Source: Nemertoderma westbladi
Lineage: Eukaryota > Animalia > Xenacoelomorpha
Direction of reading: 5' to 3'
Assembly: GCA_032718475.1 (NCBI GenBank)
Contig: JAUCBJ010000079.1
Span: 1 to 45,362, forward strand
DNA: 45,362 nucleotides
Position 1 is the first letter of the stretch, and each line of letters starts with the position of its first letter. Below are positions 1-40,163 of this stretch, one piece after another. The notes under the pieces were generated by a model. The model made no database searches and was not told the origin of the DNA. It was given only the letters and a program-made list of their open reading frames with translations. The position numbers and the translations under genes were made by a program.

Positions 1-2171
1 CTAGAGAACGCCACCAAAGAGTGGAATGAAACTCTTAATGTCATTGAGATGTATGGAGTTGTCACCTACGATAATGAAGGTAGCGTTCTGGTCGGAGAAC
101 TAGGAACTACGCGCATTATCCACATACGCGGATTAGCTGGTTCTACCCACGTGTTTACTCGAGCGTGTTCCGACGTGATTGATTATTCCTTTGAAACTCT
201 CACCGAAACGCAAAAGAATCTCCGACATGGACAATTCGAACTCGCGCAGCGTTACGTCATTGACACCGAACGCAAACCGGCCATGGGTATCGATGGATCG
301 ATGTTACCCCAGCCCGTACTCGAGATGTTGTTCAACGAAAGAATCCTTAAAATCGGCTCAGCTGTTTATGGAGATCTCCAAAACGACTTTCGGAATATGG
401 AAAATATCCCATATCCTTTCGTGGATACGCAGCTGATTGCTCCCTGGGCAGAAGGTCGAGGTTTCTTCCGCACCATGTATGCTAATACGTCCAGCAACAT
501 TACAAAGGTGCAACGAACTTCCATCGGACATCTTGCCTTTCAGGAATACGGATGGAATTTCAAAGTCGGAAATCCCATCAACTATCAACAAGTATACGGA
601 GACCATTATTCTCGATTATACTTTGATGGACCATTGACCGCACCTGGCGCCGTGTATAGCTTCATGAGTGTTCCACTCCGTCCCTCCTTAGCTATCTACA
701 CGATCTTTGAAAACACCGCACTTTCTGGTTGGCTAGCCGATGTGTGCAGTTGTACTATACGCGCCCATCCATTAATACTTGGGACCAAACTCGCTAAGCT
801 AGATGAACATAATAAATTCATCCGCTTCGAATGTTTCCGGCGATTTTTAACCCCGTTCCGCAACGTGGATAGCCAATTTAAAGACCACGCTTTGACCAAG
901 CTCAGCCTAAGAAACTCAGCTGCAGAGAAGTTAGATAGCGCTGGATTTGCCATTTTCAAAGAGATTTGTATATCGAACTTGCACTCCTCTGTTATACAAA
1001 GACCTCGAATCCCCACAGGTTATTCTGTCGTGGAAATTCAGACAATAGGTCCACTTGAAGAGACAGACACGCCCACCTCAGCTATGCACTGGGAAGACGA
1101 ACCAATATGCCTAGAATCTGAGGAGATTCAGCCTATCGCGCCCCGGAACAGCGACAACGATTACATCCTAGAATGGTATCAAGGTCCACAGTGTCTCACT
1201 GCGTACGATTATCGCCATGCCAACTATGTTTCTCGGCAACGTTGTCGGTTATGCGCATCGAGAGACCATGTTACGCCCATGGACACAAACGTCCGCTGTT
1301 CCTATTTCCACGAATAACCGGCGATGGAAATTTATTGCGCGTATTGCAGACTCAATAACTTGCACATTTTTGCGGTTTGCCCTCAATTTATGACTCAATG
1401 TCACCATTGTCAACTAAAGGGACACGCCAGTTTCGATTGCCCTTTTAATCACGATTTGGAAAGCTAGATGAAATGATCACACTACGTTACATCAGAGCTT
1501 GGGAAGCGAACGCTGATTTACATTGTGATTCGCGCCATCGGTATTATCCTGGACGCGCTTACGAAGGAGTTTATGCGTTCCATCCTTATCTATTCGCTTC
1601 TGTCGAACAGAAATCACGCATATTGAGTTACGAACTACTGAAGCGCATCGGAGAATGTATTTCAACCAAGTTCGTACGCAAATTTCTCAGGAGTGTTAAT
1701 CCTAGCGACCTTCATTCATATAACCTAATCAATTTTATCCGTCAGGATCCGGACTATGGCGACTTATTTGTTAACTCACACCCCGAGTTACAGGAAGTAT
1801 ATCGACGGCCTTACGAATACCGAGCCCGCGAACGCGAGTTGGAAAGAACCATTAAACCCAGGAAGTTTCTGACTGCCTATGGTCCACCCACGGCTCTCGT
1901 TCAGACCACTCGTAAAGGACCCGTAAGAGCGGCCGTCCTAAAACGCGCTCTCAAGGCCGTTAGACCCCTCTCCCCCGACGTTGATGTCAATCAACCCGGC
2001 ACTTCGACTGGCGGATACACCGACCATAATCCTACACCCTCTGATGCAATCATATTGCACCCTTCACCCAGGAGTTATAGCCCTCCTTGTAAAGTGGCTC
2101 GCCCCAAAGAGAAAAAGACTCTGGCCAGCTTTAAAAAACTGCGTAAACGCCGTCCGCGCAAGAAAGACTAA
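1..2171 (+). pseudogene. Accessory ORF of element A: DEDDy (WRN-exo/RNase D/EXD-like) 3'-5' exonuclease domain, Cys/His zinc-knuckle module and basic NLS-like tail; disrupted by one stop and one frameshift
   Basis: Frame 1 is open from base 1. Motifs: VVTYDNEG (ExoI), LPQPVLEMLFNERILKIGSAVYGDL (ExoII), FVDTQLIA, SIGHLAFQEYG and PLRPSLAIYTIFE (ExoIII-like, E in place of D). After TAA at 1315-1317 the same frame reads YCAYCRLNNLHIFAVCPQFMTQCHHCQLKGHASFDCP. A frameshift at ~1449-1464 joins it to ORF 1473-2171, which ends KKLRKRRPRKKD. Confidence 0.75.
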
Positions 2172-2248
2172 CTGTTTAGAGTATTTACGTATATTAGAAA
2201 CTGTGATTTTGTTTATTTATAGACTTGAATCCCATTTTCTTGGAGCGG

Positions 2249-4603
2249 TGTAAAAGCTTTTGCGGATATAATCAGTCCCCTTGCCCGCAAAGTACCGTGT
2301 GGGTGTTTTAACGGACATAAAAGTTGTTTTTCTATATGTGTGCTTTGGCGGACATGGCAAGACACAAAACCCGCAATGCGTCAAATCCTCTAGCACAGTG
2401 TAGCCTTGATGATTAAGATTACGACATCTAACAGCTGGTTGCTGGCATGGAAACGGCCGTTGGACACATGGTTCTTTGTTCAGCTTAACAGCCAATCAGA
2501 GCGATTTTTACCTTAGACGTGGAGATATTCTACAGATGGTACTAGGCGTGTTCAGTCTTATAGTTTTCTTGTTACTGTTGTGTTGTTGCTTCTAGGCCAA
2601 GAACACCGGCTCTGGAGTCAATTGTTTTCAGACTTTAGAAGAAACATTAGTAGGCTTAGATTATAGAACGTATAACTGTTATCAGTCCAGTTCAATCAGT
2701 GTATCAGTGCTGCATTATCAGTGTTACACATATCATATCTTAACCTCAATCTGAAGATAAAAGTATCTATACTGTCAATAATTTATAATAGTCGGTGTAG
2801 TGTGTGTGGGGGTGTGTGTGTGTGTAGGTGTGTGTGTATGTGTGTGTGTATAAGCTTTGTCAAAATAAGATATAGAACTTAATGAAGAAAAATCATCTTA
2901 AATTGATACAAACAATAACATTGATGACTGTTTTCCAGCTTCCTCGCATTTAACCTGGTCAAGGGACGTAGCTTGGGGCACCAGGGGGGGGGGGGGTATA
3001 ATTAATATAATAAATATGACTGGGATACTCTTAAAACTGATAATATGCAGCAGTAAAGAGTATGAGAATTTCAGTAAAGGAAAGTGAGATTGTTGGTTAG
3101 ATGAAATTGTGGCAGATGTATGGAAAGTAGTAGCGTTGAACATGAACAGAACATACCATTATTGGCAGATTGCAACTGGATGCTGAAAGTTTGTTGGTGT
3201 ACGTACAAACTACCAATGAATGAATGGTTGCTGCCAAAATATATACAAATTGATTATTCTTAATTAAGAAGTGGACCATATAGATAAACAAATGCATATT
3301 CTATTCTAAAATTCAATATAATTTTGATTTAAGCGGGTGAGGCTAATTTCTAGCACGAATATACCATATAACATACAATCTCTTGTTACGTGATTATCCC
3401 TATATGCACTTTGCCACCCCATCCTATTTGCTGTAGTGATACGAACTCGCCACACTACATGGCTCGACCTATGCCAGCAGATTCCCAGGGACTGCCGTAC
3501 TGTAGGGATGACTTACGATGAGTCATGGATACACCCTGACACAAACTCGGGATACTTACCTACCGAGTAGACGGGACAGCAGTAGTTAGCTAGTCAGGAT
3601 ACTACAACGCAATTATCACCAACCAATAAGGGGATTACTACCTAGTAAAGTCAAGGTAGCAATAGGGCCTCGTGGGTCGCGTCAATCAATGGGAAGATCA
3701 CGTGTTGCGCAATCTATATCATTCTCATACAGTAAATGCATTATATATATTGCTTATGAATAGATTGTACTGGGGTTAATCACTATAGGTGAGCCTCTAA
3801 TATCGTATCAGTGTCTTGCTAAGAGAGAACTAACTAATCGATCAGTTGAACATCGATTAGTCACAACGTTACTGCTGCTACTTAATGAGAATAGTAGTCA
3901 GGCCGTCTTAATGCTATTTACTGTTGTCATTATTTGTATCAGTTGGTTGAATATTATTACTTGGAGAACATCGATAAATAACCCAAATTTCCCAATTTTC
4001 TTGATACACTACAGGTTAGAGAGACAGGTTACATATAGCGATTGCGACTTATATTATCGTGGTTTGTAGTGAATTTAATGCTATTTGATAGGCACTACAT
4101 GAGTCAATTGCTGTTCTCTTTATGTATGATAAAATTCATTGACGGTCGGCAGATTAGTGTGCAGTATTGTGCGGTACCGGTAGTGTGCATGATTGTGGCT
4201 GATAACTAAGCATTTCCTAAAGAATGCGCCTCATACGTGAATCATAAGCCTTACCGTCTTACCGTTGTGTTTAGTATAAGTCATATCTCTGTTTACCTAG
4301 ATAGAGCGCCACGTCCTAAAGGAACTGTTAATATTTCCCGAAAGTGAATAATATTAGTCAGAAATTATTTATTAACGATCAATCTAATAATACAGTAAGC
4401 TTACACTGCAATAAAATCTAAGCCCTCCGAATCCAGTCTCCCGGGTATATCCAGCGGGTGAATGGACGCGCACTAGGCTGGCTTCGGCTAATGTTGTGTT
4501 TATTGGTATTAAATACTTGTCATATGTTAAAGTCTATTTATAAACCAAAAGAAATATAAATTTTGGCAGGTTAAACTGCTAAAGGTCTTCAAAAGCGAGT
4601 ACA
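2249..4603 (+). repeat. 3' LTR of element A (TGTAAAAG...GCGAGTACA), ~1.1 kb longer than the homologous LTRs of B
   Basis: Both ends align by eye with the reverse complement of the B LTRs (e.g. TCTCCCGGGTATATCCA, GGTTAAACTGC.AAAGGTCT). CCAAT box at ~2492, AATAAA at ~4410. Segment ~2740-3910 is absent from the B LTRs. Confidence 0.8.
2795..2850. repeat. Imperfect (GT)n microsatellite
   Basis: Directly visible. Confidence 0.9.
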
Positions 4604-4818: not shown

Positions 4819-5271
4819 TCAAGCATGGTGAGCATCTTTATACGCGAAATAATGATAGGTAACGTCGGCGGTTTGGAAATCACTTCCCGAGAATTTCGCA
4901 CTAATGATTTTTTTATGTTCGCTGCTAAAAAAATAAGGAATATAGTAGCAACACCGTCGTACTACATTTCTATAAAAAATATTCTCCAATATTGTAAATA
5001 AATCTCCGGGATCATTACTTTCCGCAGAAATATAAGTTATATTTCGAAGCTCTTTCCAATAATAGTTTTGATAACTTGCCAACTTTATATTAAACTTAGA
5101 TATGGGTGCGTGACAAATAGGACAAATTTTAGAACAATAATTATTCATTTCGGAATATTGTACAATACATTGTACGCTAGTTGCATGTTTATTTTCACAT
5201 TTATAATAATCTCGATGTTGTTGCAATAACTTAGAATAGCAAACTGGACATTTTTCATTTAAAATATCCAT
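4819..5271 (-). CDS. 150-aa intronless protein with an N-terminal RING-finger-like domain; possibly of viral origin
   Basis: CPVC...CENKHATSVQC...CPICH gives RING-like Cys/His spacing. Compact AT-rich ORF with an AAAATG start context. Confidence 0.55.
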   Translation of the reverse strand: MDILNEKCPVCYSKLLQQHRDYYKCENKHATSVQCIVQYSEMNNYCSKICPICHAPISKFNIKLASYQNYYWKELRNITYISAESNDPGDLFTILENIFYRNVVRRCCYYIPYFFSSEHKKIISAKFSGSDFQTADVTYHYFAYKDAHHA

Positions 5272-5439
5272 TTTCCAAATTTTAAAGTAAATTGAAAATA
5301 ATTACCTCAATACACAACAACAACAACAACAAACAAATCTGTTATACTGTATATACAATTACTACTACAATTTTCGATTATTTAAAAACATTAAAATTTT
5401 ATAAATAATCATAAAATATTTATAATATAGAGGGAAAAG

Positions 5440-5883
5440 TCAAGAATCAATGATATTATCAACATATTCAACATTATCTGTTGATTCTTCAGGTTCGACA
5501 AAGGATTCTTTTGAAATCATTACAATAAAGAAAGACATAATTTCGTAGGGGCTATGCCGATTTAGCCGTATTTCAAACTTTTCACCAGCTTCGTTGTATT
5601 GTGTAATAACAATTAACCCCTCTATCATGGATAATAGTAAGATGTTGCTTAATTTTCCCTCATGCTCAACTTTCAGGTTGTAATCTAAGAGATGAATACT
5701 ATTATCAGAAGCATCAATATCAATTGAGCTTAAAACTTTCCTGGCTTTTTCAGAAAACTCAATTTTATATTTATCATCTCCCCGACGGTAAATCGTATAA
5801 TCAATAACAATATAGGCTTCACCATCTTCTGCAGTAAATGAATGCCTTACTATTGGCATAACCATATCGGAATCAGAAGACAT
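5440..5883 (-). CDS. 147-aa intronless hypothetical protein with an acidic tail; possibly of viral origin
   Basis: Clean ORF in very AT-rich DNA with globular-protein-like composition, tandem with the RING ORF (168-bp spacer), TAAATAATG start context. Confidence 0.45.
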   Translation of the reverse strand: MSSDSDMVMPIVRHSFTAEDGEAYIVIDYTIYRRGDDKYKIEFSEKARKVLSSIDIDASDNSIHLLDYNLKVEHEGKLSNILLLSMIEGLIVITQYNEAGEKFEIRLNRHSPYEIMSFFIVMISKESFVEPEESTDNVEYVDNIIDS

Positions 5884-6768
5884 TATTTAATTTATTTTAT
5901 TGTAAATCAAACAAACAAAGTAAAAACTTTTAAACTAAAACCATTACAAATGATTAATTGTGATTAAAGCAAGAGATTATATATATATAAGATATTTTCA
6001 AAAATAATACAGGTCTTAAACTGAGAAATAGCCTAAATTCGGATTATTGATTGGTTGATTAGCCGGTAGGGAACTACTGTATAAACAAAAATTATTTGGT
6101 TCTGCGTAATAATAATAATAATCACTAATGCTCGTATACGCGTAGCTGGAACGTGGCGGAATTTCATGTATCATACTGGTTGGTTTGTTGATTTGGCGAC
6201 AGCAGTTGTGGAGTTGGCAATCAATATAATATAATATATACGTGATGCGTGTAGATGGCCACGTCGTCACCATATACAGTATACAGTGGTGGTAACGTGG
6301 CAGTGGTGGTAACGTGGCGAAAAGGTGAATAACCGTAGGGTTAGGCAAGCATCACTGTTGATTGGTTGGTTGGTGGGTGGCTGGGTGGGTAACAGCCGTG
6401 GATCGAGTAGCGATGGGTTGGGGGCTAGCCTTGCATCGTGAGGTTAGGCTATGTGAAGATGAATATGCAATGGTTGGTGAAAAATAACGATTTGAAAAAT
6501 AGTAGACGTTACCTGATGCTAAGTGTAGACATCCGAACACCTGTAAAATAAAGGTTGGTGATTGGATGCAGTACTAGCGTTGGGTGACTAATAACGCCTC
6601 TAGCGGAATAAGCGGGAACTTGAGAAGTTACCATGGTTACGGATGAAATGCTGACATCTGATTGGTTGAAATAATAACGATCACTGGTAAAGGATGAAAT
6701 GGTGGCTTCTGATTGGATGCAGTACTAGAAATGGATGGTAATGATGGGCTACGGGTGACCATGGCGCA

Positions 6769-9700
6769 GTGTCATACAAACATATACTACTTATAGGGGG
6801 ATATAATTATTTTAAGGTGTGTCGGAATAAGAAACATCGTAGTGCAAAACGCTTCAGTGGTGGAGTGTTGGTATATTTTAAAATTGATCTAGAACCACAC
6901 GTAACCAATCTAAATGATTTCAGTGTAGAAGATATTATATGGTTAAAACTAGATAAACAATGTTTAGGTTTAGAAAGGGATCTTATTTTTTGTTGTGCAT
7001 ATATAGCGCCGTACAATTCCACTAGCCACAACAACAGTGCAATTGACTTATTTGATGATATTGAAAGAGGGTTGGCATTTTATTGGGACAGTGCAGATAT
7101 ACTAGTTATTGGTGATTTAAATGCCAGAACGGGTAAAGGATGTGATTATATTGCAAGCAATGGCGGGATGATTACACATTGTGATGAATCACTTATTGGT
7201 GACCAGGTTGATGATGAAAATGAATTTATTTATTATTGTATAAATATCGATAGAAATAATTTTGATAAAAAGGTAAATGCCTATGGTACAACATTATTAA
7301 ACCTATGTAAAAACACTGGCCTACGCATTTTTAATGGAAGGCTAGGGAATGACGAAGCCTGTGGTGATTTTACTTTTCGTTCTGGCAATGGTTCTTCTAC
7401 AATTGATTATGTACTAGGCACAGTACCAATGATGGGGCATTGTACAGATTTTTTTATTGGTATCCCAAATATTTATAGTCACCACTGTACAATTTCATTT
7501 AAATTAGAAGTGCAAACATTTCTCGAGCCAAATGCTACTGAACCCGATGCTAGTAACATACATGTTGAGACTCCAGTAAACCGTTATTTTTGGAACGATA
7601 GAGTTAAACAGCAATTTAATACGAATATGAAACATGCAAATATGATAAACGAGCTGCAGAATATTGGCGACCTGATTATCTCCGATGTTAATTTTCCACT
7701 GCAAAATGTAGACGCTGCGGTGGGGAACCTTTCGGATATATTCGATCGTCAGGCAGAAATTTTATCATTACATCGAACTGATAACGAACAAGGTAATGTT
7801 AATTCCTTTTGTAATGGTGCAATTTGGTTTAATTTAGAATGTAGGGATGCAAAGTTGGCTTTTAATAGTGCGTTGTCTAATTGGAAAAGTTCTGGAGCAC
7901 ATGAAGCGTATTCCTTACTTCAAAGGAGGCGTGCTCAATATAAAGCAACCCTGCGTAAAACCCGATTTGAATATTCGAGAAATGAAGCGCAGCGCCTGAA
8001 CCTGGCACGTGTGTCAGACCCGAAAAAGTTTTGGAAAAAATTGAAATCTATTTGCCGGGTTGCTATTCCGAGAGGGGCAAATGAACCATCTATTAACCAG
8101 TTTAAACAATATTTCGAGCGACTTAGTTCAAACAATTCAAATTTTCAGGATATGGGAAGGAATTGTAGTAGTTACGTAGGTAGAAATGTTAATATAATTG
8201 AAAGTAGAAGTTGTTTTGAGAATGATTTGAGTATGCCATTTGATGAAGTAGAAGTAAATAACGCTATTAATAAGTTAAAGCGCGGTAAATCTCCAGGTGT
8301 AGACAATATTATTAGTGAATTTATTATTGAAGGTCGGGATCAGTTAGTACCGGTGTTAACATTATTATTTAGTGCTATTTTGGAATCGGGCAATTTTCCA
8401 CGAGATTGGACAATTGGTATTATATGTCCATTGTTTAAAAAGGGGAAAAAGTCGGACCCCGGTAACTATAGGGGAATAACTCTGTTGTCAATTTTGGGTA
8501 AATTATTCACATCCGTTATTAATAGTCGTTTACAATGGTGGGCAGATTGCTATGGTATTGTAGTTGAAGCCCAGGGTGGTTTTCGAGCAGGGTTTTCTAC
8601 AGTTGACCAAATGTTTGTTTTACGTGCGCTTATTGATCACTTTTTGTTAACTCGTAAGAAAAAATTATATTGTGCTTTTATTGACCTGAAAAAGGCATTC
8701 GATTCAGTTAGTCGTGCAGCTTTATGGTTGAAATTAATCAATTTAGGTGCGGGTGGCAAAATGCTAAATGTTATTAAGAATATGTATAGTAGTGTAAAGT
8801 CATGTGTAAAAGTAGATGGTAAATTGTCAGAAACATTTTTAGTATCTATAGGAGTTAGACAAGGTGAGAGCTTATCACCCTTTTTGTTCAGTATTTTTAT
8901 TAATGATTTGGAAAACGAATTAAGACAAGGTGGCATTGAAGGTATAGATGTTGGTACGATGAAATTATTCTTATTGCTATTTGCTGACGACATCGTTATA
9001 TTGGCAGAGACTGAGTCAGCTTTACAGCAATCCCTAATAATTCTAGAATTTTATTGTAAATATTGGTGCTTGGAAGTAAACTTAGATAAATCTAATGTTG
9101 TTGTTTTTGGTCACAAAGGTCGTCCATCGGCGGTGCAATTTTACTACAATAACAAAGTGATGCCAAAAATTAATCAGTATACATATTTAGGTATTACTGT
9201 ATCTTCACGGTATCTGGAAAATTTTATATTGCTCAAAGTAACATTGCAGAACGAGGTAGTAGAGCATATTTTTCTTTACTAAAATACTTTGTACGATTTC
9301 CCCATGCTACTTTCGATTGTGCTATAAATTTATTCGACACTTTAGTGAAACCTATTTTAATGTACGGTGCTGAAATTTGGGGTTTTGATACAGCTGATGA
9401 TGTAGAAAGGGTACACTTACGGTTTCTGAAAAATTTTCTGGGTGTTAAAAAAACTACTCCAAATTTTGCAGTATATGGAGAGACAGGTCAATTACCACTT
9501 ATTTTCGAACGTTGATTCAGATTAGTTAAGTATTGGACCAGAATTATTAATCTACCAAATACTAGGTTGGTGAAACAGGCTTATTTAATGTTGTGCAATG
9601 ATTTGAATAACGTGCTAGATAGTAGTAGTAGTCATTTAACGCCAAAAAGTTGGGTTGTGCAATTAAGAGGAATACTAAATGATTTAGGATTTAGTTGGGC

Positions 9701-10316
9701 TTGGCAAAATCAGGATGTAGGTAATAGTGTTAATACTTTTCTATTCAATGTAAAGCAACGTATCACTGATCAGTTTGTGCAATTTTGGAGATCAGAAGTA
9801 GCATCGTCCCCAAAAGGAAGATTTTATATAAAGGAAATATTCAAACCCTCTACTTACATTTACGTATTGAGTAATAATTTAGCGTTGCGCCGGCTTTTTG
9901 CGCAATTTAGATGCTCATCACACGGGCTGAGTATTGAAACGGGACGATGGTACGGTATAGCTAGGGACCAGCGAATTTGCAATATGTGCGATTCTAATTT
10001 AGTAGAAGACGAGTACCATTTTCTATTAGGTTGCACTTTTTATCACAGCCTGCGGTGCAGATACTTGGGTATGAGATATATGGTTTTCCCGAATTTTTTA
10101 AAATTTATTGAATTAATGCAAACTGACGATCCTACTAAAGTTTTGAATATTGCGCGATTATTTTTCATGCATTTAAATTACGTGCAACTGTTAGCTAACT
10201 ACTGTATACTGTCTATTGGAAATGTTTAATTTACTGAAATTGTTGATAATATTATGTATGTATATGTACAACAGGGGCTTTAAGTAGCCCGATCGTTGAT
10301 TAATACTAATAATAAT
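6769..10316 (+). mobile_element. 5'-truncated non-LTR retrotransposon (APE endonuclease + RT; RTE/RTE-X-like), frameshifted near 9205-9212
   Basis: EN motifs GDLNAR and STIDY; RT motifs AQGGFRAGFSTVDQ, FIDLKKAFDSV, GVRQGESLSP and LLFADD; C-terminal IETGRW...C..C...EDEYHF...C. An alternative frame from ~9213 (SGKFYIAQ...KPILMYGAEIWG) runs into ORF 9567-10229. (TAA)n-like tail at ~10300-10316. Clade assignment is by eye. Confidence 0.9.
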
Positions 10317-10930
10317 TCATGCTATTACGCTCAAATTTAAGTGCTACCAAATGTTCTCAAAATTTCACCCCCTAGGTACAGAGCCCAGCAAAGGGTTGCC
10401 TAGTTGGCTACGTTTTGTTATTGGATTTATTATCCATTTAGATTTTATTTTCTAACACACCCCTATCAGCGGACAGACAGACGTAAAAGACAAACAAGAC
10501 AGAAGGAACCAGTTCCATGAGATACCAAAAAAGAATCATAAAAAGGCACAAATATAAGTCTCAATTATAGAAATTAACTCGAGAAAATACTCTAAGTACG
10601 TACAGTACAACTAATATGGTGTCAAAAAAATATAATAATTCCAATTCCTACAGCAACATAATATAAGGAAAGAACACAATCATGTTAATATCTTCAACAT
10701 AACTCAGTTTACTCTTGTCGTAACAAATAATATAAGCAAAAATATTTTTTTGTCAACAGGTTCCATCATATCAAAAAATACAGATATGCATCTAATCTCG
10801 ATATAGTTTATAAACAAAAAATAACTTTCAATTTAAATTAAGATTTAAATTCCCGCCACCATTTCACTTTATGATTTAAAATATAAAGAAAATTGCTGTG
10901 TATAAATTTAATGTAAAATGTCTTTTAAGC

Positions 10931-11907
10931 GTCCCAACCAGAAGGACTTTGTATTTCAACCTCCCAACCAGAAGAACTTTGTCTTTCAACCGTCCCAACC
11001 AGAATAACTTTGTCTTTCAACCGTCCCAACCAGAAGAACTTTGTATTTCAACCTCCCAACCAGAAGAACTTTGTCTTTCAACCGTCCCAACCAGAATAAC
11101 TTTGTCTTTCAACCGTCCCAACCAGAAGAACTTTGTATTTCAACCGTCCCAACCAGAAGAACTTTGTCTTTCAACCGTCCCAACCAGAATAACTTTGTCT
11201 TTCAACCGTCCCAACCAGAAGAACTTTGTATTTCAACCGTCCCAACCAGAAGAACTTTGTCTTTCAACCGTCCCAACCAGAATAACTTTGTCTTTCAACC
11301 GTCCCAACCAGAATAACTTTGTCTTTCAACCGTCCCAACCAGAAGAACTTTGTATTTCAACCGTCCCAACCAGAAGAACTTTGTCTTTCAACCGTCCCAA
11401 CCAGAAGAACTTTGTCTTTCAACCGTCCCAACCAGAATAACTTTGTATTTCAACCTCCCAACCAGAAGAACTTTGTCTTTCAACCGTCCCAACCAGAATA
11501 ACTTTGTCTTTCAACCGTCCCAACCAGAAGAACTTTGTATTTCAACCGTCCCAACCAGAAGAACTTTGTCTTTCAACCGTCCCAACCAGAATAACTTTGT
11601 CTTTCAACCGTCCCAACCAGAAGAACTTTGTATTTCAACCTCCCAACCAGAAGAACTTTGTCTTTCAACCGTCCCAACCAGAATAACTTTGTCTTTCAAC
11701 CGTCCCAACCAGAATAACTTTGTCTTTCAACCGTCCCAACCAGAAGAACTTTGTATTTCAACCGTCCCAACCAGAAGAACTTTGTCTTTCAACCGTCCCA
11801 ACCAGAAGAACTTTGTCTTTCAACCGTCCCAACCAGAATAACTTTGTATTTCAACCTCCCAACCAGAAGAACTTTGTCTTTCAACCGTCCTAACTGGAAG
11901 AACTTTA
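10931..11907. repeat. Tandem satellite of ~31-32 copies of a 30-31-bp unit (CCGTCCCAACCAGAA[G/T]AACTTTGT[C/A]TTTCAA)
   Basis: Directly visible, with head-to-tail units and no spacers. Confidence 0.97.
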
Positions 11908-12946
11908 TGTCTTTGTGTGCTGTATGTCAGTCTATAAATCATTGCAGTTCTTTTACAGAGTTTACCACGTAATAGTACTTTGAATAATAAACATAATCTT
12001 CGGTTGTGCTATCTTCTCTTAGCACAACCAATCACCACCAACCATTGTAGTAAATATTATATTCAAACACACAGTACTACTGTACCGTACAGTAGGGTTG
12101 TATATTACCAGTACTTACAGTACATTATATTGTAATAAGGGTTTAAATTTGTAGTACATTTTAATTTTTTTATTACCAAAATTATTATGCTCACAATTAA
12201 TCATAACATAATAATTCACTAATAAGTATAATATTAAGCCAAAATATAGGCAAATAATATATAAATACATAATAATATATACAAAAATATATAATAACCA
12301 AGTATTATATAAAAATATGTGACTATTTATTCAAATCTACTAAATATTCAAATTCTACATATTGTTATTGTTGGAGTAGGGCCTGTATTTATTCACCTAG
12401 AATCTTATAAGTCTATCATTTATGAATAATTTAACTTTTAATCCGAATAATTGAGCTTTTTTTTACTAAAGTTCCAGAAGGAATATTAAATGTTTCTTCT
12501 AAACAGATAACTAGTAAATCAACGTTTTAGCAATTTTATTCATATCTGTACCGTGAGAGCCTTTTTTATGAAAAGGGCCCCGTACAATTGTAAATTATAG
12601 TGCTGCTCTAAGGCTTTTCAAAAATCAGACTAGCTCTTAAGTTTTGGGTAATGACTTGAATTTGAGAAAACTGCTTGCAGATTTGAAATCTACATTAAAT
12701 TCGGCACATGATAGAATAAAAAAAGTTTTTTGTCAATTTCCAATATAGGGGGGGTGCTACCCCCTCTCCCCTTATGTTGTTCGAATATGAAATACATAAC
12801 GAAGCCTTATAATTTTAGAATGCGCGGATTCCAATGATGGCTGCCCCGGTTGGGCGGCAGCAGGTGAATGTGGATACAATGCGGTCTGGATGCTCCCCAA
12901 CTGCCAACTCTCCTGTAATCAGTGCAACCCAGGTTGGTTTCGTGTG

Positions 12947-13493: not shown

Positions 13494-13531
13494 TCTCTGA
13501 TCACATTGCCGCCAACGAGAAAATGCACAGT
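13494..13531 (+). pseudogene. 5' fragment of a B-type (bulb-type, GNA-like) lectin exon interrupted by element B
   Basis: T-rich tract plus TAG acceptor at 13491-13493. Reads SDHIAANEKMHS and joins in frame to 28634 once the element and one TSD copy are removed. Confidence 0.8.
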
Positions 13532-14763
13532 TGTTCGCGCTTTCAGACCTTTGGCAGTTTAACCCGCCAAATTAGGATGTCTTCTAGATAATAAATCACC
13601 TTTAGTCTATGACAAGTATTTAATTCACTACACTAGTCGAAACCAATCTGTGCGCGATCATTCACCCGTTGGATATACCCGGGAGATTGATTTCGACGGC
13701 TTAATTTTATTGCTATGTAAGCCTAATGTATTATTCGACTGACAGTATTATATAATCTCTGACAATATTATTCACCTTCGGGGAATATTAACAGTTCCTT
13801 TAGGACGTGGCGCTTTTTCTATACAAACAGAGTTATGACTTAAACTACTCACAACGATATGGCTTAGTTATAATTCACATATATGGCGCATTCTTTAGGA
13901 AATGCTTCGTTATCAGTCTCACTCATACACAATGCTGCACAATACTGCACACTGATCTGCCGATCTTCACTGATTTTAGTCACGTATAAAAGGAACACGG
14001 ACCGAATCATGTAGGGTCTATCAAATAACATTAGATTCACTTCAAACCACTCAACATAGGTCGCAATCATTTATCTGTAACCTTTCTCTCTTACCTTCGG
14101 TATATCAAGAATATTGGGTTTTCGGGGTTATTTGTCGTTATTCCAAATATAATAATTCATCCACCATATTATGAAGAACCGACAGTAAATAGCAGTATAA
14201 CAATATAAAAGTATGCACAGTGTTACACAGTATGCAGTGTATGCAGTACTGCAGTATGCAGACATCAGACATCAAACATCAGACATCAGACATCAGAGTG
14301 CAATATGCAGATAACGGATATATGTCCTTATAATTAAGCCTACTAGTGTAGGACTAAAAACTGAAAACACGGAGGTGCCAAAAGCCGGTTCTTAGGCTCT
14401 GGGCAAAACATAACACTGAACTACTGAGTTTCTGTATACACCTCCAACACAGAGACAACAAACGCTCTGATTGGTCAACCTGAACAACGAGAGAACAAAG
14501 AAACAAAGAAACGTCGACGTGGCAATATCAGCTGCTAGCCGTCGTCATGGTAGCGACACTGTTTTCAAGAGTATCGAGCTTTTACGTCACGGAATTACGG
14601 ATTATGTCCTCTAAAGTACAAATACAGTACAAATACATAAGAAATGACTTTTATGTCCTCTAAAACACCAGTACAGCAAGGACACGGCCTTTTTATGCCT
14701 GGCAAACCAACTACAGAGTACTTTAAGGGAAAATAACCGGCTAATTACGCAAAAGCTTTTACA
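13532..14763 (-). repeat. 3' LTR of element B (1232 bp)
   Basis: Direct repeat of 27390-28628. By eye it differs by two substitutions and one 7-bp GCAGTAT unit. Confidence 0.97.
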
Positions 14764-14841
14764 CCGCTCCCAGAAAATGGGATTTAAGTCTATAAAATAT
14801 AACAAATCACAGTTTCTAAAATATAAAGATACTCTAAACAG

Positions 14842-15003
14842 TTAGTCTTTCTTACGCAGACGGCGTTTACGCAGTTTTTTGAGGCTAGCAAGAGTCTTTT
14901 CTCTTTGGGGGGAGCCACTTTACTAGGAGGGCCATAACTCCTGGGTGAAGGGTGCAATATGATTGCATCAGAAGGTGTAGGATTGTGGTCGAGGTATCTG
15001 CCG
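14842..15003 (-). pseudogene. Remnant C-terminus of the accessory ORF in element B
   Basis: Translates to DHNPTPSDAIILHPSPRSYGPPSKVAPPKEK, then a 1-bp frameshift, then TLASLKKLRKRRLRKKD*. Near-identical to the end of ORF 1473-2171. Confidence 0.9.
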
Positions 15004-17781
15004 TTTCGATATGCTTCTCCTCGAGCTGATTTTCCTCCGCTCGTAGCTGGATACGTTCATCCAAAAACTCTCGCAGAGAATAGGATCGTCCAAGTTCGAT
15101 AACTTCTTAGAGATTCTGGATTTCCCAATCGAATTGAGATAAGGCCAATTCGTTTATCGATTGGACTTACTGTTATAACTTACGTTTATCTGAACAAACG
15201 CAGGTTTCCTTTTTGATCTTTATAGAATAGCGTTTAACTCGTTTCGTACAACGCTCTCCTTCACCTTGATGAGGGGTTGTATCACGTTAAACGTGGACGA
15301 CCATACGGTTGGATAGTGATATTAGGTGTCCGCGTCACAATCCGGCTAGGTAAGATGGGCGGCTAGCTAGAAATCACTGTCGGAGTGTTACCGATTAATT
15401 GTTAGGGTAGCACTAGATCTTTGAACAGTGAATACAGTCCGCGAGGATCCGCGACACCACCAGGATCGCAGGTCTGGGGTCCAACTAAGGAATGAGGAGG
15501 TTTGACCGAGTATTCCGGGACTCTGATCGTAGGTTTACTCCAGGATCGTTCGAGCCGAGTGAGCATAGGTGATACGTCAACAAGTTTCGGTTTACGTGGA
15601 TGTTTATGTCTTTCCGTTTATTAGTTGGGTCTAGGGCATTTATCGTAATAATACCAAAGACGCACGTCTGGTAGGGTAAACGCGGGTGATATTTATTTGT
15701 TGTTACAATGCTTCTATCAAGAATTCCAAATATACGTTGGAGTTACCACGTTTATTTGTTTCTTTAATGTCTTTTCTTTCGAGCCGATTTCGAATAGAAT
15801 TTTCGCATTCGAATTTCAGTTTATGGTTCCGACTCCGCTGGGCAGGATATATAGTCGACATAGTCCGTATTGTGTAAATTGATAGAATGACCAGTAGTTA
15901 AGAAGCCCATATACGTACCATTACGCTGCGTATATCGAGCAGCGAATTTTCTATAGTCCAACTCTCGCGAGAGCTGCACTTGGGACATTGTCGGTTCGAT
16001 ATAACGACCATCGTCCTCTGCAGCAGTTGGACTAACGTCGCCGCGTATTAAGCTATCAACAAACGCTTGTAAAAGTAGAGTATATCGCTCCCCGATACCA
16101 AGACCATCTTCTATCAACTCCGTCATGTCTGCTATATATGAGTTTATCCACATTATAAGGAGTTTATATTTAGGCTAGCGAGCGTCGCTGCCTACTCCAA
16201 TTAACCCCCGGACAGTACGAGATCCTCAGCGCCGATGTGTCGTCGCCGCTGTACTTTCGCCAACGACGTAGCCGCACAACGACAACGACAACCGGCACAA
16301 GTCACTCGACTGTCCGTCCCAAAGGCTTAGATGTACTTCAGGTTTTCCTTGGAGAGTTAGGTTACTTTTACGATTGCGACTAGCTACTGTAAACACACCT
16401 TAGCAGTAACATTCACCTATAAACTCACAAATACCACACACAACTTGTCACAAATTACACACATTCGGGCCATTTGTCCGTTAGTCAATGCCTTCCAGAA
16501 TGTCACTGTATTATTATGTATCCTTGGATACTAGCAGTGCGCTATTTATTCCCTATGCTATTCAATGGGCAAGCTTTCTATTGTTCTTTTAACTCCATTC
16601 TAATTCTAGCGTGGTTGTTGCTATGGTGACATTATGCAAAGCTAGCGGTAGAATTAGGGTAATTTCCAATGCATACAGATCTGGGATGTTATTTAATAGT
16701 AATTCTTTAATAGTCAATGTCCTGTTTATACATGACTTTATGAATTTTATCGGCTATTGACTATGTTTGGGAGACTTTCGTACACGCATACGCATAATAA
16801 TATAAATCTCCGCTCCCTTGATCTATTAATTAATGGAATTTTGGGGATGTTATAAATTGCGTAAAAATGGCAATTTATTAAATTCATTAAAAGGCATGAA
16901 TTTAAATTTATTCCCTGAAATTTTATTATTTGATAATTAAATGGACATATTTTGATTCTAGAACATGTCTAGGGACACAAGATCCTTAATTCTAAGAAAA
17001 TTGTCTCTTTAAGAATATCGGTAAATGCTACGATATCTTAATTGACTAAAATTGTTGAAGGATCTGAATTTTACAGATTTTGACTTATTTGATTTGTAAA
17101 TATTAACTAATTAATATTTGAGATGGGCACCGATTTATTCCAGAACTTGTCTGGGGACGTTAACCACTGATTCTATAATTTGTCTTTCAAGTATATCGGT
17201 GGGTGCCACGATATCTTAATCGACTAGAATTACAGATGGTCAAAGGGTTTAACAGATTTATTTTGCGTTATACGCTACTGTTAAAGGGACATCACGCTAC
17301 TATATGTATTATTTAATATACGGTATGAGAGCAATATCGCACGAAGCAATGTCAGTGTGAAGAGGCAAGTCGTTTCCAAGGTCTACCCAGAGCTTGGTTT
17401 AGCCGAGACACGAGGATCTGAACTTTGCATTCCTAATACTCTGCCTACCAATAATACTTAAATATAGTAGTGGCTTTATTGTACTTTAATAAGTACGGAC
17501 ATTTCATCTTACTGTAGTTACGTATTTGTAATGTAATACGGACAGTAAGGAAGAAGGAAAAGAATTATTTCTTGCCGTCGCATTAAATATAATATATACG
17601 TAATTAAGTAATATACGCGAATATATATTGCACTAATCTACTAAATAATCGCTAAAATAACATTCTACTGAATAAAATTAAAGAAAACGATTATAATAGA
17701 ATTACATAGTAATACATACATAAATATAAAAATAATAAAATAATATAAAATAATAGAGTCACACACCCACTCCATATGTTG

Positions 17782-20700
17782 TTACGTTATGGAGTCCCTA
17801 GATGTTTGAAGGATTAGGGAGGTGGTCGTGGGAAGAGAATCTTGCCTTCCACAGTTTCCGGAGAGTCCTCCATTCCCTTCCGATAAACACAAACGACCGA
17901 CTGGGTGATTGAGTCGCTGCATCCTGAATACAATTCCAGGTTTCCTCTTCGTCCTGGAATAGTGACGATAGAAACATCGCTCAAAGTATATGACGGCGTC
18001 ACAAAGCCGATTCCAGGAGCTATAGTGGTCCGTCGCTCTCTGCAGGAGAGGTGAGAGTCCCTGCGAGACGTCTGATGTTCCAGAGCTCCAATCGCTCTCT
18101 CTGATCTTCATGAAGGATCCACTCGCGGTGGGGAGGCCCAGATCCACGGCGTCGTCCCTGGCAACATGTAATACCGACAGATCTATCCCGGGTTCAAATA
18201 ACTCCGATCCACCCGTCCGGGTTTCAGGTTCGACTTTCTCCGCTCCCTTGGCTGGTCTAATCTCAGTCGGAGTAAGATGGGGAGGCCATTCATTCTCCTT
18301 ACTCAGGAAGTCGGGTTCACCTAACCGGTCTGTAGTATCTGTCAGTTCTTGAGGAGTTGCTCCTCTGGAAGCGATGTCCGTTGGATTAAACTTCTTGGGG
18401 CAATATCTCCATTGATCTACATTGGAGCTAAGATTGTCATTATCTGAGGAGTGTGGTGTTCCCTCAGTTGGGTCGTCTCCCTCACTAGTATCATCTTCCC
18501 ATTCACTCACCTGGCAGACGCGATCTTGAAGCAGTCTTTCCCTGAGCGTTCTACGGGAAGGTCCAGTAAGGTACCAACCTACTCTAGTTCTTACCGCATA
18601 GGTCTGTAGTGGCTGCGGTTGAGCAGGCCGTTTCTCTAATGTCTCCAGCGCCTCATGCGCGTTTTGGCCGATGAGTATTTGCACTCCAGGATAATCAGTC
18701 TGGAATCGAGGTATGTTAAGATGTTGGATGCTCTCATCCTCGTCCCAATTATAAAGGTCTGCTTGAGTAGTAGCGAAGTTCTTTATAGCCACCATTTTCA
18801 CTGACCTGATGCTATGTTCTCCTAGTTCGTCCTGGGGGGTGGACAACTCACCTATATAATAGTCGGCAGCTACAGTAGAATTCCAAACCTGCATGATCCC
18901 TGACATGTTTAGCTTGGTTCGGAACTTGGGTTGTCCAGCAAAGATGACTTCGGCTAGTTCTTTATCGATGAATGTTCCTGTGCTACCGGAGTCCAGGAGG
19001 GCGTTCACTATATAGCTCTTCTGAGGTCCGTGGACCCGTAACTGGACTACAGGAAATTCTCGGATTCCTATATTGGAAGTTGGCGCTTTCCAAGATGGTT
19101 GTTGATCGGAAGTAGTTAAGGTAAGGTCGCTGTCTGTGTCTTTCTCATACACAAGTGCTCGATACACTGCGGTGGTGTTTATTAGGTAACAGGATTCGTT
19201 TTGGTCGGAGAACTCGTCCGTATAGAATCCTTCCATCTCAGATTGATCAGTGTCGTTCACATCACTGAATTGGACATGTAGTTCGGACTCACTTACCTGA
19301 CTCGGGCTGTTTCGTTCGAATTCCGTGTGCAACAAGATATGATGTTTTGCGCCGCACTTTGCACACCTTGCGTCGGAGTTACAGGTTCGCCGTTGGTGTC
19401 CTCGTCTGAGGCAATTATAACACAACCGCTTATCCCACATGACTTCACGTCTATCCTTTAGTGATTTCCTCAGGAATTTATCACACGCATTTAAACGGTG
19501 GGGCCCGTCGCACAGCACACATTTCGGCTTGATGTTACTTACTTTAACCTGTGCTATGTGGTGCACACTTGTTCTTTCCTCGGGCTTTCTCACCTGAATT
19601 CTTTTAGGAGACGTAGGAAGGGTTTTTTGTACCGGTTCCCTTCTGTCATTGGGTCGAGACTCGGATTTACTTACCTGATCTTTAGGCATTTTATTGACAT
19701 AATAAGATCTGTCAGTGTCTTTCCCGCTGTCCTCTCCTTGAGAAGTTTGGCTTTCACCGTCGTCGGTATAACATACTGGTGTTACCCTTCTCCTAGAAAC
19801 GGGTTTCTCACTTACCTTGTTTTCCAATGTCTTCTCTCTGGACTGCCTTAGGAGCTGTAATTTCACTTCTCCATCTAAGAATGACATGAGATCAGCCATG
19901 GTAGGGTCTCGTCGTTGTTGTTCCATCATATATAACACTTTCTTATCCCAGCGTGTACCTACTCCACCCTTCGGTAAAGCAGAAGCCACTGCTCTAATAA
20001 CCATAGCACTCTGATACTCATGAGACTTACCTAGCCAATCTAATTGTCTGCAGATCTCCTGAATTTCATCGGAAAACTCTATAATCCCGCTACTAATAAA
20101 CTTTCGGGGCGCTACCAACTTTGCATACAAATACCCAGCTATGTTATTCCTATTACCATACCTGATGTTTAGTGTATCCCAAACTTGTCTTAATCCGTCT
20201 GGATGTCCAATAAACCTTAACGCCATTAACTTGGGAGATCCTTCCAAGCACTCGATGAGGTATCTAAGTTTTTCTCCATTAGATAGTACGGAGTTCTGTA
20301 TGTTATCTTTGTAATATTCATTAAAAGGTAACCATTTCATCTCATCTCCATTGAACTTAACGATCTCTCCCACCTTTACCGCTTGCCGGGCTTCGGTTCT
20401 AGCCATTTGACGCGTAAAACTTTCTTGGGCCATCGTGCTATTTAATATCGAGTTATCGGTGTATAAATTTCTCGGATTATGATCAGTTCTATAGGGAATA
20501 TCATTATCAACAGGTCTATAATTACCCTTAATAGGGTTCACTATAGGAGTTTCTACTTCGCTAGCAGTATAAATGCGTGTAGGCTCCACACCTTGCGCAT
20601 GAAATACTTCAGACCTAACGGGTTGACACATTGTTACAGGGGGTGGTGTTATACCCCTTTGTATGTTCACTAATTTATCGCATTCTAACGCGATACTTTG

Positions 20701-21210
20701 CTGCACCTTTTGCAACTCTAACCTACTTTCCCTTACTGTTCCCTTGAGCTGCTGAACAGTCTCTTCCATTTCCCGGACCTGCTGAGAGGAGCACAAACAG
20801 TGTTCCCTCAGCTGCTCGAGCAGGAGACCCATCTCCCGTCGTCCCTCAGCTACCCACTCAACCGCCGAAGCGGGAGTCGCCAACGTTGTAGCGGGCGAGC
20901 GAGAGACGACGGGCGATAAATTCTTAATATCTCGCTCGGCGTCCAGGATGGGTTCGGACTCGGGAACAGTCCTACTGGGCACAGGTAGTTTAGTACTGTA
21001 CAAAGGGAATTTATAGGCAGGTTCTGGGAGTACAGGTGTCTCTATCTTTCTTTCCGCTTCTACTGTTGCCATTGCCTCTGCCGCCTTTCTTTTCGCTTCT
21101 GCTGTTGCCATTGCCTCTGCCATCTTCCTTTCAAGACCCTGTCCAAGTCTAAGGCTGATTCTAATACCTTCCAAAAGACTATCTGACAGTGCCCGTTTTG
21201 TGTCAGACAT
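17782..21210 (-). CDS. gag-pro: BEL/Pao Gag-protease fused in frame to an RNase H C-terminal remnant (1142 aa)
   Basis: DUF1759-like KFNGDEMKWLPF...EKLRYL...RYGN, a triple Cys/His knuckle (CVLCDGPH, CYNCLRRGH, CAKCGAKHHILLH), protease ALLDSGS, then QWRYCPKKFNPTDIASRG and YSSWNRL with no RT. Confidence 0.93.
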   Translation of the reverse strand: MSDTKRALSDSLLEGIRISLRLGQGLERKMAEAMATAEAKRKAAEAMATVEAERKIETPVLPEPAYKFPLYSTKLPVPSRTVPESEPILDAERDIKNLSPVVSRSPATTLATPASAVEWVAEGRREMGLLLEQLREHCLCSSQQVREMEETVQQLKGTVRESRLELQKVQQSIALECDKLVNIQRGITPPPVTMCQPVRSEVFHAQGVEPTRIYTASEVETPIVNPIKGNYRPVDNDIPYRTDHNPRNLYTDNSILNSTMAQESFTRQMARTEARQAVKVGEIVKFNGDEMKWLPFNEYYKDNIQNSVLSNGEKLRYLIECLEGSPKLMALRFIGHPDGLRQVWDTLNIRYGNRNNIAGYLYAKLVAPRKFISSGIIEFSDEIQEICRQLDWLGKSHEYQSAMVIRAVASALPKGGVGTRWDKKVLYMMEQQRRDPTMADLMSFLDGEVKLQLLRQSREKTLENKVSEKPVSRRRVTPVCYTDDGESQTSQGEDSGKDTDRSYYVNKMPKDQVSKSESRPNDRREPVQKTLPTSPKRIQVRKPEERTSVHHIAQVKVSNIKPKCVLCDGPHRLNACDKFLRKSLKDRREVMWDKRLCYNCLRRGHQRRTCNSDARCAKCGAKHHILLHTEFERNSPSQVSESELHVQFSDVNDTDQSEMEGFYTDEFSDQNESCYLINTTAVYRALVYEKDTDSDLTLTTSDQQPSWKAPTSNIGIREFPVVQLRVHGPQKSYIVNALLDSGSTGTFIDKELAEVIFAGQPKFRTKLNMSGIMQVWNSTVAADYYIGELSTPQDELGEHSIRSVKMVAIKNFATTQADLYNWDEDESIQHLNIPRFQTDYPGVQILIGQNAHEALETLEKRPAQPQPLQTYAVRTRVGWYLTGPSRRTLRERLLQDRVCQVSEWEDDTSEGDDPTEGTPHSSDNDNLSSNVDQWRYCPKKFNPTDIASRGATPQELTDTTDRLGEPDFLSKENEWPPHLTPTEIRPAKGAEKVEPETRTGGSELFEPGIDLSVLHVARDDAVDLGLPTASGSFMKIRESDWSSGTSDVSQGLSPLLQRATDHYSSWNRLCDAVIYFERCFYRHYSRTKRKPGIVFRMQRLNHPVGRLCLSEGNGGLSGNCGRQDSLPTTTSLILQTSRDSIT

Positions 21211-21339
21211 TTTTGTTTGTACAGTTGAATGCCTACTGCTATATTACAGTCTAAGCAAGTCTAGTAATTCAGTATTAACTGCTAGCCTAGTAATTAATTA
21301 CCGATACTGCTACTCAGTGTAGCGTGATATATATATAAT

Positions 21340-21590
21340 ATATTAGAATACCGGTATGCTTATAGTATATATAAGTATTATTACAGACTAGGTTTATCTC
21401 AGAATACCGGTATAATTTTAGCACAAATATATATAAATATATAATAGGCCTATCGGGAATACCGGTATACAGCTTACAATTTGTAGTATATATAATTCTG
21501 GACTAGAATTAATTACAAGTACCGGTATAATTTCAGCCTAAATTTACAGAAATAAAGATAATAGGCCTATCGTAAATACCGGTATATCAA
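21340..21590. repeat. Five ~57-bp degenerate tandem units, each containing the palindrome (A)TACCGGTA(T), in the 5' leader of B
   Basis: Motif at ~21348, 21404, 21459, 21520 and 21576. Confidence 0.8.
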
Positions 21591-23436
21591 TTATTTTAAA
21601 TAATTGAATTTCTGAACTTTAGGGTTACTTTGTTACTTTACTTACTTTATTACCGTTATTTGAACAGTAGTCCAACTGATATTGAGACCTAATGGTTATA
21701 TGGTAGGCCTACTATTTATAAATCGTTAGATTTGATTTATAATATATATATACCCGTTTTAATGGGCTTTGTCAATATTTGAAATAAATGTTATTATTTC
21801 TGGGGAGTAATCACTACACAAAGCGGTGCGCTTTCAGTGAAGTGTTACTTACAGGACACTAAAACAAATAATACTAATTTACCTAAGTTACTTAATACTA
21901 CTAATTACGTACAATTCGGGTGAGATTACAATCTCTAAATAAACACAAAAATTTACAAAAACACAAATACGAATTTTTAGGGTAATTTTACAAGAAGTCT
22001 ACAAACCAGCCTAACAAAGGGTTAGAAAACTGATTATTACAACGGACAGGGTACTACGGTATTTGAAATAATAAGTAGTAGTAAATACACTGCGTTGTCT
22101 AGATAGAAAAATACCACCGCCTGACGACCTATAGCCGTATCGCTATAGGTTCTACGTTATGTATCACGGAGTGTTCCTACCTAGAAGTTAATAGAGCTAA
22201 TCGAATGTGCCTATCAACCACTTTACAACACAAATATAATGCCTACACTAATTACTTCGGAAAGTACTGTACACTAAACCCTAAATTAGGTACGAGTACT
22301 TGTACAACAGATAATCAGTAGTTAAATATACTTGAACAGCTAAAGGAACCACGGCATCTGCTGGAGTGACCGATGCACAAAATCACCAGTCTTTACCTAC
22401 GCCGAGCAGCCCGTGTAGTACCGGGGTTAATTTAACTATAGCGGTATGTATAACAAACACAATTACTGTAGGAACAAACTTGGGGAATGAATGTTGCGGA
22501 TAATCGCATAAACTCTGAATAATAAATATTACGCTACGCGTACAAACTACTCAAACAAAATACAGACCGAACACTGACAGACTACTATCAAGCCTAAACA
22601 AACTACGGTATATGCAGACTCCGAAATGATTAGGGAGTATGCGCTCTAACCCAGTAGTGCGACTTATTCTTTAGTTGGGGGTTTACCTTACAGCGTTCGC
22701 TGCCCCTACTTCCTAACCGTACTTAATCAGACAAATGATCTACACACGCTGCAATCCGTTCCCAGGTAGCACAGGACGTCCACGAAAGAAATCGAACGTT
22801 CATATTTGGTACTTTTTTTATGCGAATCTGAACATCAATGAAATATTGTTCAAAATTGGTAAAAATTGCTGACGTTGTGAGTAATTTACCAAATTGTGAC
22901 GTTCACATTAGGTAATTTAACGTCCTAACTTTAAAGAAATTGAATATGTACCAAAACAAACGAATATTGAACGTTCAAATTGCGTCCAGTTATGCGTTCA
23001 TTTTCTTGTACCTAAATATGTACGTTGTTTGAACATTTATGAACGTTCAAACATAATTTACTTTAACTTGTTATGTCAACGGCATGTTCAAACTTGTTCG
23101 TGATACAATTATCTGACTATTTATTATTTTGCAATTATTTTTTATGTTGGTTAGCCTACTCCTTGTATGGTTGGTGTGGTTCCGCTTAGTTATACCTGGA
23201 CTAATGGTTCATTCTCAATACAAAACAATTTAATTAACTTTTTTTTTAAACACTTATTTTTTTTTTTTAATTTAAACAATTTAAAACAATTTTAAGTAAT
23301 CGAAAAATTATTCACACAACAAAACATTGATAACCAATACAATGCTGACGCATTTTTAAACATTTTAAACAACAAATAACATCAAAATTAGACAAAGGTG
23401 ATTCTACTGATTACTAAAGCTAATACACTAGTACTA

Positions 23437-27377: not shown

Positions 27378-27389
27378 TATATCCGTTAT
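27378..27389 (-). promoter_or_regulatory. Primer-binding-site position of element B: ATAACGGATATA, complementary to its own LTR (putative self-priming site)
   Basis: Abuts the 5' LTR end, lacks the TGG of a tRNA PBS, and forms a perfect 12-bp inverted repeat with 28176-28187. Confidence 0.65.
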
Positions 27390-28628: not shown

Positions 28629-28964
28629 ACAGTGGTGATTATCGCGTATCTCCCAACGGTGAATTCAAGTTGACATACCAAGACGACGGCAATCTCGTTC
28701 TCAGATGCGGAAGTACAGCCGTCTGGTCAACTAACACCGGAAACACGGATGCTTTCGTTCAGATGAAGGGAGACGACTGCAACTTCGTAATTTGGCCAAA
28801 TGGTATTGCGATATTTCCTGTTTGGGCAACTAATGCTTTTCGTCTTTTTGTCTCATGCCAGAATCCGAGAGCGGTTGTGCAAGTCGATGGCAATTTCGTT
28901 GTCTATAATGAAGACACAGACGTAGTTTGGGCAAGCAACACTGTCGATCGTGCATCCAATCTAT
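28629..28964 (+). pseudogene. 3' part of the B-type lectin exon
   Basis: SGDYRVSPNGEFKLTYQDDGNLVL...VWSTNT...MKGDDCNFVIW...VWATN...VQVDGNFVVY...VWASNT shows three QxDxNxVxY-like subdomains. Donor GTAAGT at 28965; the reconstructed exon is phase 1-1. Confidence 0.88.
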
Positions 28965-29157
28965 GTAAGTTAGTGTATTTCTACCGTACACATTATTACA
29001 GGAACACAACGTAACTAGGTAGTCTCTAGTTTTACTTATACATTATGTAAATACAATAACAACAACAAACAATGTATATAGGTATTGTAGGGCGAGCCAC
29101 GAAGTAATGAGAACCTTAGCGTAGGGGTACCATTAATCAACTTGTAGATCAGTATAG

Positions 29158-39979: not shown

Positions 39980-40163
39980 GTCACAAATCATACATCACAT
40001 AAACTCAATATTATGTAGTGTAGTGTGTAATGAAAGCATATACTGTACTATATGTTAGGCGAATAATATTTATACTGTACAACTTATATACTGTAGGTCT
40101 ATATTTTGTCATTCACTCATATCTTAACTTAAGAATAAGAATAGTGATCCTTTGCCAAAGGTA

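Follow-up and report, generated by a model that had tools for sequence, protein, structure and literature searches.

The gene in the env position of an LTR retrotransposon at the start of the analysed stretch of DNA (45,362 nt, hereafter the window) is a real, selected accessory gene with predicted nuclease activity. It combines a predicted DEDD-like 3'-5' exonuclease domain with three CCHC zinc knuckles, and the element that carries it likely belongs to BEL/Pao. We hold the identity of gene and element, taken jointly, to be highly probable. We tentatively propose that the protein acts on the RNA of its own element, where it is predicted to trim 3' ends in replication. The focus copy is the 3' end of an element and occupies window positions 1-4603; its third open reading frame (ORF3) and the adjacent tract comprise the following features:

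1-2171, + strand: 3' part of ORF3, which takes the env position in an LTR retrotransposon; 5' end open, reading interrupted by a stop (1315-1317) and a change of frame (near 1460)
34-750, + strand: DEDD(y)-like 3'-5' exonuclease domain with ExoI, ExoII, DTQ and ExoIII motifs, assigned by profile and Atlas evidence
70-78, + strand: ExoI D24/E26, putative placement
373-375, + strand: ExoII D125, which aligns directly to RNase D
424-432, + strand: DTQ motif
697-711, + strand: ExoIII Y233-x3-E237
1243-1440, + strand: three CCHC zinc knuckles, recognised by sequence; the stop falls between the first and the second
1449-2171, + strand: C-terminal part of ORF3 in frame 3, with a basic tail (approximately 2106-2168) at its end
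2242-2248, + strand: short purine-rich tract at the position of the polypurine tract (PPT), with a matching place in a sister element

In frame +1, the ORF spans positions 1-1317 (438 aa, no start visible) and ends at the stop; past it, 47 more amino acids can be read in frame +1 up to the frame change. Both lesions had been part of the original prediction, as had a long ORF ending 77 bp before the 3' LTR, and this distance holds: the stop codon ends at 2171 and the TG of the LTR lies at 2249. The motifs named in that prediction were recovered in their order (TYDNEG 64-81, LP..VLEML.NERILKIG 304-357, VYGDL 364-378, FVDTQ 418-432, SIGHLA 520-537, PL....IY...E 673-711), followed by the multi-CCHC module and the basic tail. 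No transmembrane segment was detected in the visible part of ORF3, whose N-terminus lies beyond the window (maximum Kyte-Doolittle-type hydropathy over 19 residues, KD19, of 1.1).

Profile and language-model evidence together suggest a DnaQ/RNase D fold for the domain. Pfam, PHROGs and PDB-sequence searches returned no exonuclease match for ORF3, while RNase D (TIGR01388) was found as a weak match in NCBIfam, far below the curated cut-off (E=0.0022). In the ESM Atlas, the first match of residues 10-300 scored 0.94 with 173 shared features, and the clusters found contain PF01612 (DNA_pol_A_exo1) in 28-51% of their members; shuffled proteins score at least 0.9 in 4-10 of 100 cases in this search. 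The top clusters are giant-virus proteins, and their taxa were not used as a sign of origin. A HMMER search against 1.84 billion proteins yielded three matches, of which P0002 was the sole real one (E=2e-6); P0001 and P0003 were dismissed as their similarity is repeat-driven. P0002 (648 aa) is 29% identical to ORF3 over 171 residues and has the layout of exonuclease and three knuckles in common with it. In the Atlas it scores 0.86 to a cluster with PF01612 and zf-CCHC, and we count the Atlas matches of both proteins as one kind of evidence. P0002 itself is a singleton metagenome protein located on a 9.4 kb contig. Word-indexed protein searches (lengths of 240-767 or 356-1134 aa) found nothing besides P0002, scans of metagenomes and viral contigs gave no true relative, and tblastn against phages reached E~10 at best; one candidate, L014, is an ORF carried by a phage that matched by chance and has no knuckle motif.

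Profile alignments argue for the assignment independently. In hhalign comparisons with an alignment of 12 RNase D/PolA-exo sequences, the focus domain scored 28 (maximum of 40 shuffles: 21), with 19% probability on its own and an alignment from ExoII onward, and P0002 scored 38 over all three Exo motifs (maximum of 40 shuffles: 22). A two-sequence profile of both proteins aligned to RNase D with 92% probability and a score of 48 (maximum of 30 column shuffles: 21). ExoI D-x-E and ExoII D occur in order, and the alignment of P0002 to RNase D includes both; D24/E26 of the focus domain are placed via P0002 only, across an insertion of approximately 30 residues, and this placement is not significant by itself, being equalled by 1019 of 2000 shuffles. 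Pairwise MAFFT alignments put the N-terminal part in the wrong place. Two AlphaFold models, built from shallow alignments, reached a pLDDT of 30 and 36, and fold searches started from them were uninformative.

Both the focus domain and P0002 have Y-x3-E instead of Y-x3-D at ExoIII, and we thus classify the domain as a DEDD-like variant and not as a canonical member of PF01612. The E in place of the last catalytic D had been noted for this copy; since the change is common to both homologues, it is a family trait rather than decay. Hence, the proposed env-position gene that fuses a DEDDy exonuclease with zinc knuckles stands with regard to a DEDD-like domain, the knuckles and the position, but not with regard to a canonical ExoIII D. 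Nothing links the domain specifically to Nibbler, Mut-7 or EXD1. But, could the domain have lost its activity? A catalytically dead or weak pseudonuclease, similar to EXD1 or Maelstrom, would join the knuckles in binding the ends of RNA and serve as chaperone, packaging aid or decoy. The glutamate as fourth acidic residue in both homologues would fit to this, as would an EXD1-like cluster among the low Atlas matches of P0002 (0.77) and the inactive DEDD derivatives that are noted in piRNA biogenesis in the accessible part of PMC5408684. On the other hand, acidic residues are kept at all four positions and an aromatic one at the ExoIII tyrosine between proteins that are just 29% identical, and rotifer ORF3s with a D-to-E change (DEED) were judged possibly active in the same text (PMC5408684). 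We consider the loss of activity unlikely, and an E at the fourth acidic position may well still support catalysis.

The knuckles are weak by Pfam (zf-CCHC, E~0.1), but match a profile built from P0002 and a second ORF3 in the window (40128-41102) with E=4.5e-8; for the frame-3 tail, comparison with P0002 and with the knuckle profile gave no match. Single-stranded RNA is the usual ligand of CCHC knuckles. Together with the likeness of the domain to RNase D, this points to RNA as the probable substrate. A DNA exonuclease of the WRN/PolA type, which would proofread or trim cDNA ends before integration, is conceivable as PF01612 has DNA-acting members and the substrate of the giant-virus proteins in the best Atlas clusters is not established. 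Given that RNase D is the best named HMM match and that knuckles of this type prefer RNA, we regard action on cDNA as very unlikely.

The assignment to BEL/Pao draws on the LTR of the focus copy and on two further elements in the window:

2249-4603, + strand: 3' LTR of the focus copy, TG...CA, approximately 1.2 kb of LTR sequence
13532-28628, - strand: sister element, complete from LTR to LTR, internally deleted, LTRs >99% identical
14764-15002, - strand: ORF3 tail (last ~160 bases), 3' spacer and PPT of the sister, homologous to 2010-2248, arms 92% and 84%
17782-21243, - strand: BEL/Pao gag-protease ORF of the sister with a short BEL pol remnant (DUF1759, E=1.6e-11)
33686-39979, + strand, through an ORF to 41102: another BEL/Pao element (Peptidase_A17, E=8e-49; DUF5641, E=4e-27)
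40128-41102, + strand: ORF after the integrase of that element, with a knuckle module as in the focus ORF3, no exonuclease domain and no Pfam match

The focus LTR is interrupted at approximately 2760-3908 by about 1.1 kb of unrelated DNA, carries an AATAAA at 4410 that is also present in the sister LTR, and is identical to the latter at 924 of 1147 aligned bases. The features expected of BEL/Pao LTRs (TG...CA, 0.2-1.2 kb, PPT, target duplication) were found, with a length of approximately 1.23 kb and TG...CA ends in both elements and a PPT that is short. The sister is flanked by a 5-bp target duplication (13527-13531 and 28629-28633), which together with the near-identical LTRs indicates a recent insertion. 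BEL-type gag and protease were found in the sister only: its gag-protease is 26% identical to that of the neighbouring BEL element, and its pol remnant of 48 residues matches the neighbouring BEL pol at 29% (E=7e-4), RT and integrase being deleted. The pol of the focus copy lies outside the window, upstream of base 1. The predicted BEL/Pao host is thus supported through the sister, with its related LTR, ORF3 tail and BEL gag, but not by the pol of the focus copy itself. We conclude that the focus family is likely BEL/Pao, an assignment that is well supported but indirect.

That the domain is no DEDD nuclease at all, or the element not BEL/Pao, might be argued from the missing Pfam match, the low pLDDT of both models, the high Atlas scores of some shuffled proteins and the position of the element's own pol. 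However, the independent profile alignment scores above all shuffles, and the sister combines a related LTR, the common ORF3 tail and a DUF1759 gag between matched target duplications. We therefore judge either error to be most improbable.

As the second BEL ORF3 has knuckles without an exonuclease, the exonuclease domain is optional in relatives. This knuckle-only ORF3 also suggests a wider class of non-envelope ORF3s in BEL elements.

Several further features of the window were recorded. The sister is inserted in the coding sequence of a B-type (mannose-binding) lectin, whose flanks (13500-13531 and 28629-29014, + strand) form a single reading frame through the target duplication (PF01453, E=5e-6). 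Its 5' region of approximately 6 kb (21243-27389, - strand) contains tandem and inverted repeats as well as an internal duplication of 240 bp (22521-22761 / 26824-27067). Just beyond the focus LTR lie two small AT-rich, virus-like ORFs on the - strand, one Cys-rich with weak zinc-ribbon matches (4819-5301), the other without a match (5440-5886). A LINE with endonuclease and RT (6745-10229, + strand; RVT_1, E=7e-38) is followed by a 31-bp tandem array (approximately 10870-12030). Fragments on the - strand comprise a BEL-like gag-protease (30770-32524), a gag-like N-terminus (41467-43635) and an rve integrase (44359-45234, E=6e-11).

Is ORF3 an accident of a single copy? In public contig sets, six of the seven listed runs contain the stretch wholly or partly, and four runs were compared (X1-X4; three samples, two organism labels). 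From X1 by itself, 11,923 contig pieces of varied identity were obtained, a figure that reflects many diverged copies and is not a copy number. Nearly all depth in X1-X4 reads otherwise at the stop (1315-1317); at the frame change near 1460, the length differs in 48-72% of the depth (X1-X3) and in the single X4 contig covering it, and near position 1141 a minority differ in length. ORF3 is thus a family-wide gene with many copies, nearly all of which are without the stop. Within bases 1-750, 34 of 40 listed differences (of 52 in all) are synonymous, compared to 33% expected for identical base changes (p=2e-11), which corresponds to a crude ratio of 0.09 by site counting and not to a codon-model estimate. 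None of these 40 listed differences (of 52) falls in the six motif codons. Across the whole ORF3, synonymous changes make up 20 of 29 tested differences, with 6 of 11 upstream of the break and 14 of 18 in the frame-3 part that follows it; the table they come from lists 40 of 337 differences and favours those private to the focus copy. Judging by this synonymous excess, the exonuclease domain is under strong purifying selection among the copies.

The sister also provided hints on how such elements may prime reverse transcription:

27378-27389, - strand: primer-binding position of the sister; not of tRNA type, an exact reverse complement of 12 nt in its own LTR (28187-28176)
2671-2682, + strand: motif in the focus LTR homologous to the putative self-primer of the sister (10 of 12 bases)

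The site lies directly after the 5' LTR, its partner at LTR positions 442-453. An exact pairing of 12 nt was reached in 3 of 5000 shuffles and at none of 12556 internal anchors, can be extended by 7 bp and is retained in the MFE and centroid folds of an 851-nt stretch; the pairing was spotted after the fact in one element, for which the transcription start is not mapped. For BEL/Pao, the primer site is described as complementary to tRNA-Arg or tRNA-Gly (PMC8742986), whereas that of the sister does not start with TGG, and no tRNA or Rfam match was found in the 45,362-nt window. Lacking a tRNA-type primer site and pairing with its own LTR, the sister represents a BEL-related variant. Its geometry is putatively a self-priming one like that of Tf1/Tj1 and sushi elements, in which, according to the accessible text of PMC4600332, the primer site pairs with part of the element's own LTR and the pairing ends at the LTR boundary. 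That text reports self-priming for Tf1-like elements from fungi to vertebrates (PMC4600332); a single literature search gave no report for BEL/Pao, and the available part of PMC3601003 holds nothing further on BEL priming. If general, the geometry of the sister would extend tRNA-free priming to BEL/Pao.

Following these observations, we suggest that the knuckles likely bind the RNA of the element, whose 3' ends the DEDD-like domain would trim during replication. A candidate substrate is the primer: the LTR segment would pair with the primer site, and the exonuclease would halt at the duplex, trim the overhang and leave a 3' end suited for priming. In its boldest form, a BEL/Pao lineage would have swapped tRNA priming for self-priming and kept a DEDD exoribonuclease, once captured, for trimming the RNA primer it makes itself, and such a way of priming is not known from any LTR element; we consider this specific scenario quite unlikely. 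Even the broader role in replication, which may apply to ORF3, has points against it: the domain is optional in relatives, ExoIII carries an E, and Tf1 makes its self-primer by RNase H and without an exonuclease, according to a title in the reference list of PMC4600332. The recently moved sister is without the exonuclease domain and would need one in trans, or none.

Alternatively, an active nuclease might be directed against host defence, trimming or destroying piRNAs, siRNAs or double-stranded RNA and thereby weakening the silencing of the family. Viral DEDD nucleases that remove dsRNA exist, which we count in favour of such a function. The family, abundant as it is, includes a recent insertion; relatives can do without the domain, as expected of an accessory, and DEDD nucleases work in small-RNA pathways (Mut-7; accessible part of PMC5408684). 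Strong purifying selection, however, would be somewhat more in keeping with a helper of its own RNA than with a shared good, and we hold an attack on host defence to be possible, yet rather unlikely. Trimming of the element's own RNA thus remains our tentative preference.

How does this gene relate to known systems? In the open literature, no BEL/Pao element with an exonuclease ORF3 was found to be reported, although Repbase entries, subscription papers and supplements could contain one; the word 'exonuclease' occurs zero times in PMC3118150, PMC6238403, PMC8556966, PMC12440569 and PMC13524379. Within that literature, the claim of an accessory gene undescribed for BEL/Pao holds for this superfamily, but the concept of a DEDDy ORF3 is published for bdelloid rotifers (PMC5408684, accessible text). 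What is new is that the host is likely a BEL element, that the domain is fused to knuckles and that it is under purifying selection, while the idea of an exonuclease ORF3 is itself already known. In an abundant family that is present in a second organism too, and that likely represents a second LTR superfamily, strong purifying selection maintains the domain. This suggests that such domains were recruited repeatedly to serve a real function, and the many copies provide a system in which the function of retrotransposon-borne DEDD nucleases can be tested.

The rotifer LTR retrotransposons in question are Juno and Vesta, which we take to be Ty3/gypsy-like. According to the accessible text of PMC5408684, their DEDDy exonuclease ORF3s have a DEED motif and a putative function, with the same speculation on Mut-7/EXD1, and no clear link with copy number, the benefit to the element being left open; the report is repeated in the accessible parts of PMC6431247, PMC6338049 and PMC5718144. 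Like the focus ORF3, they are RNase D-like genes downstream of pol that replace env, have no membrane segment and carry one catalytic D-to-E change, albeit as DEED compared to D-E-D-E here (PMC5408684, same text). They differ by a GPY/F-type integrase and a dUTPase, and the accessible text of PMC5408684 mentions neither BEL/Pao nor a CCHC fusion of their ORF3. Athena/Terminon Penelope-like elements likewise carry a DEDDy accessory gene, but are of the non-LTR class, telomeric and equipped with many ORFs (accessible parts of PMC5408684 and PMC6431247). With Belpaoviridae, the focus family shares an LTR of approximately 1.2 kb and a third gene after pol, as well as BEL gag and protease, here in the sister; the third genes reported there are envelope-like, F-type in Roo and gB-like in mosquitoes (PMC8742986 and PMC13524379, accessible parts), and the reported tRNA-Arg/tRNA-Gly primer site (PMC8742986) is absent from the sister. 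Finally, the domain resembles the RNase D/WRN-exo/EXD/Mut-7 family (PF01612) in order and spacing of ExoI, ExoII, DTQ and ExoIII, but differs from it by scores below every curated cut-off, an insertion of approximately 30 aa after ExoI, the glutamate in ExoIII and the fusion to three knuckles.
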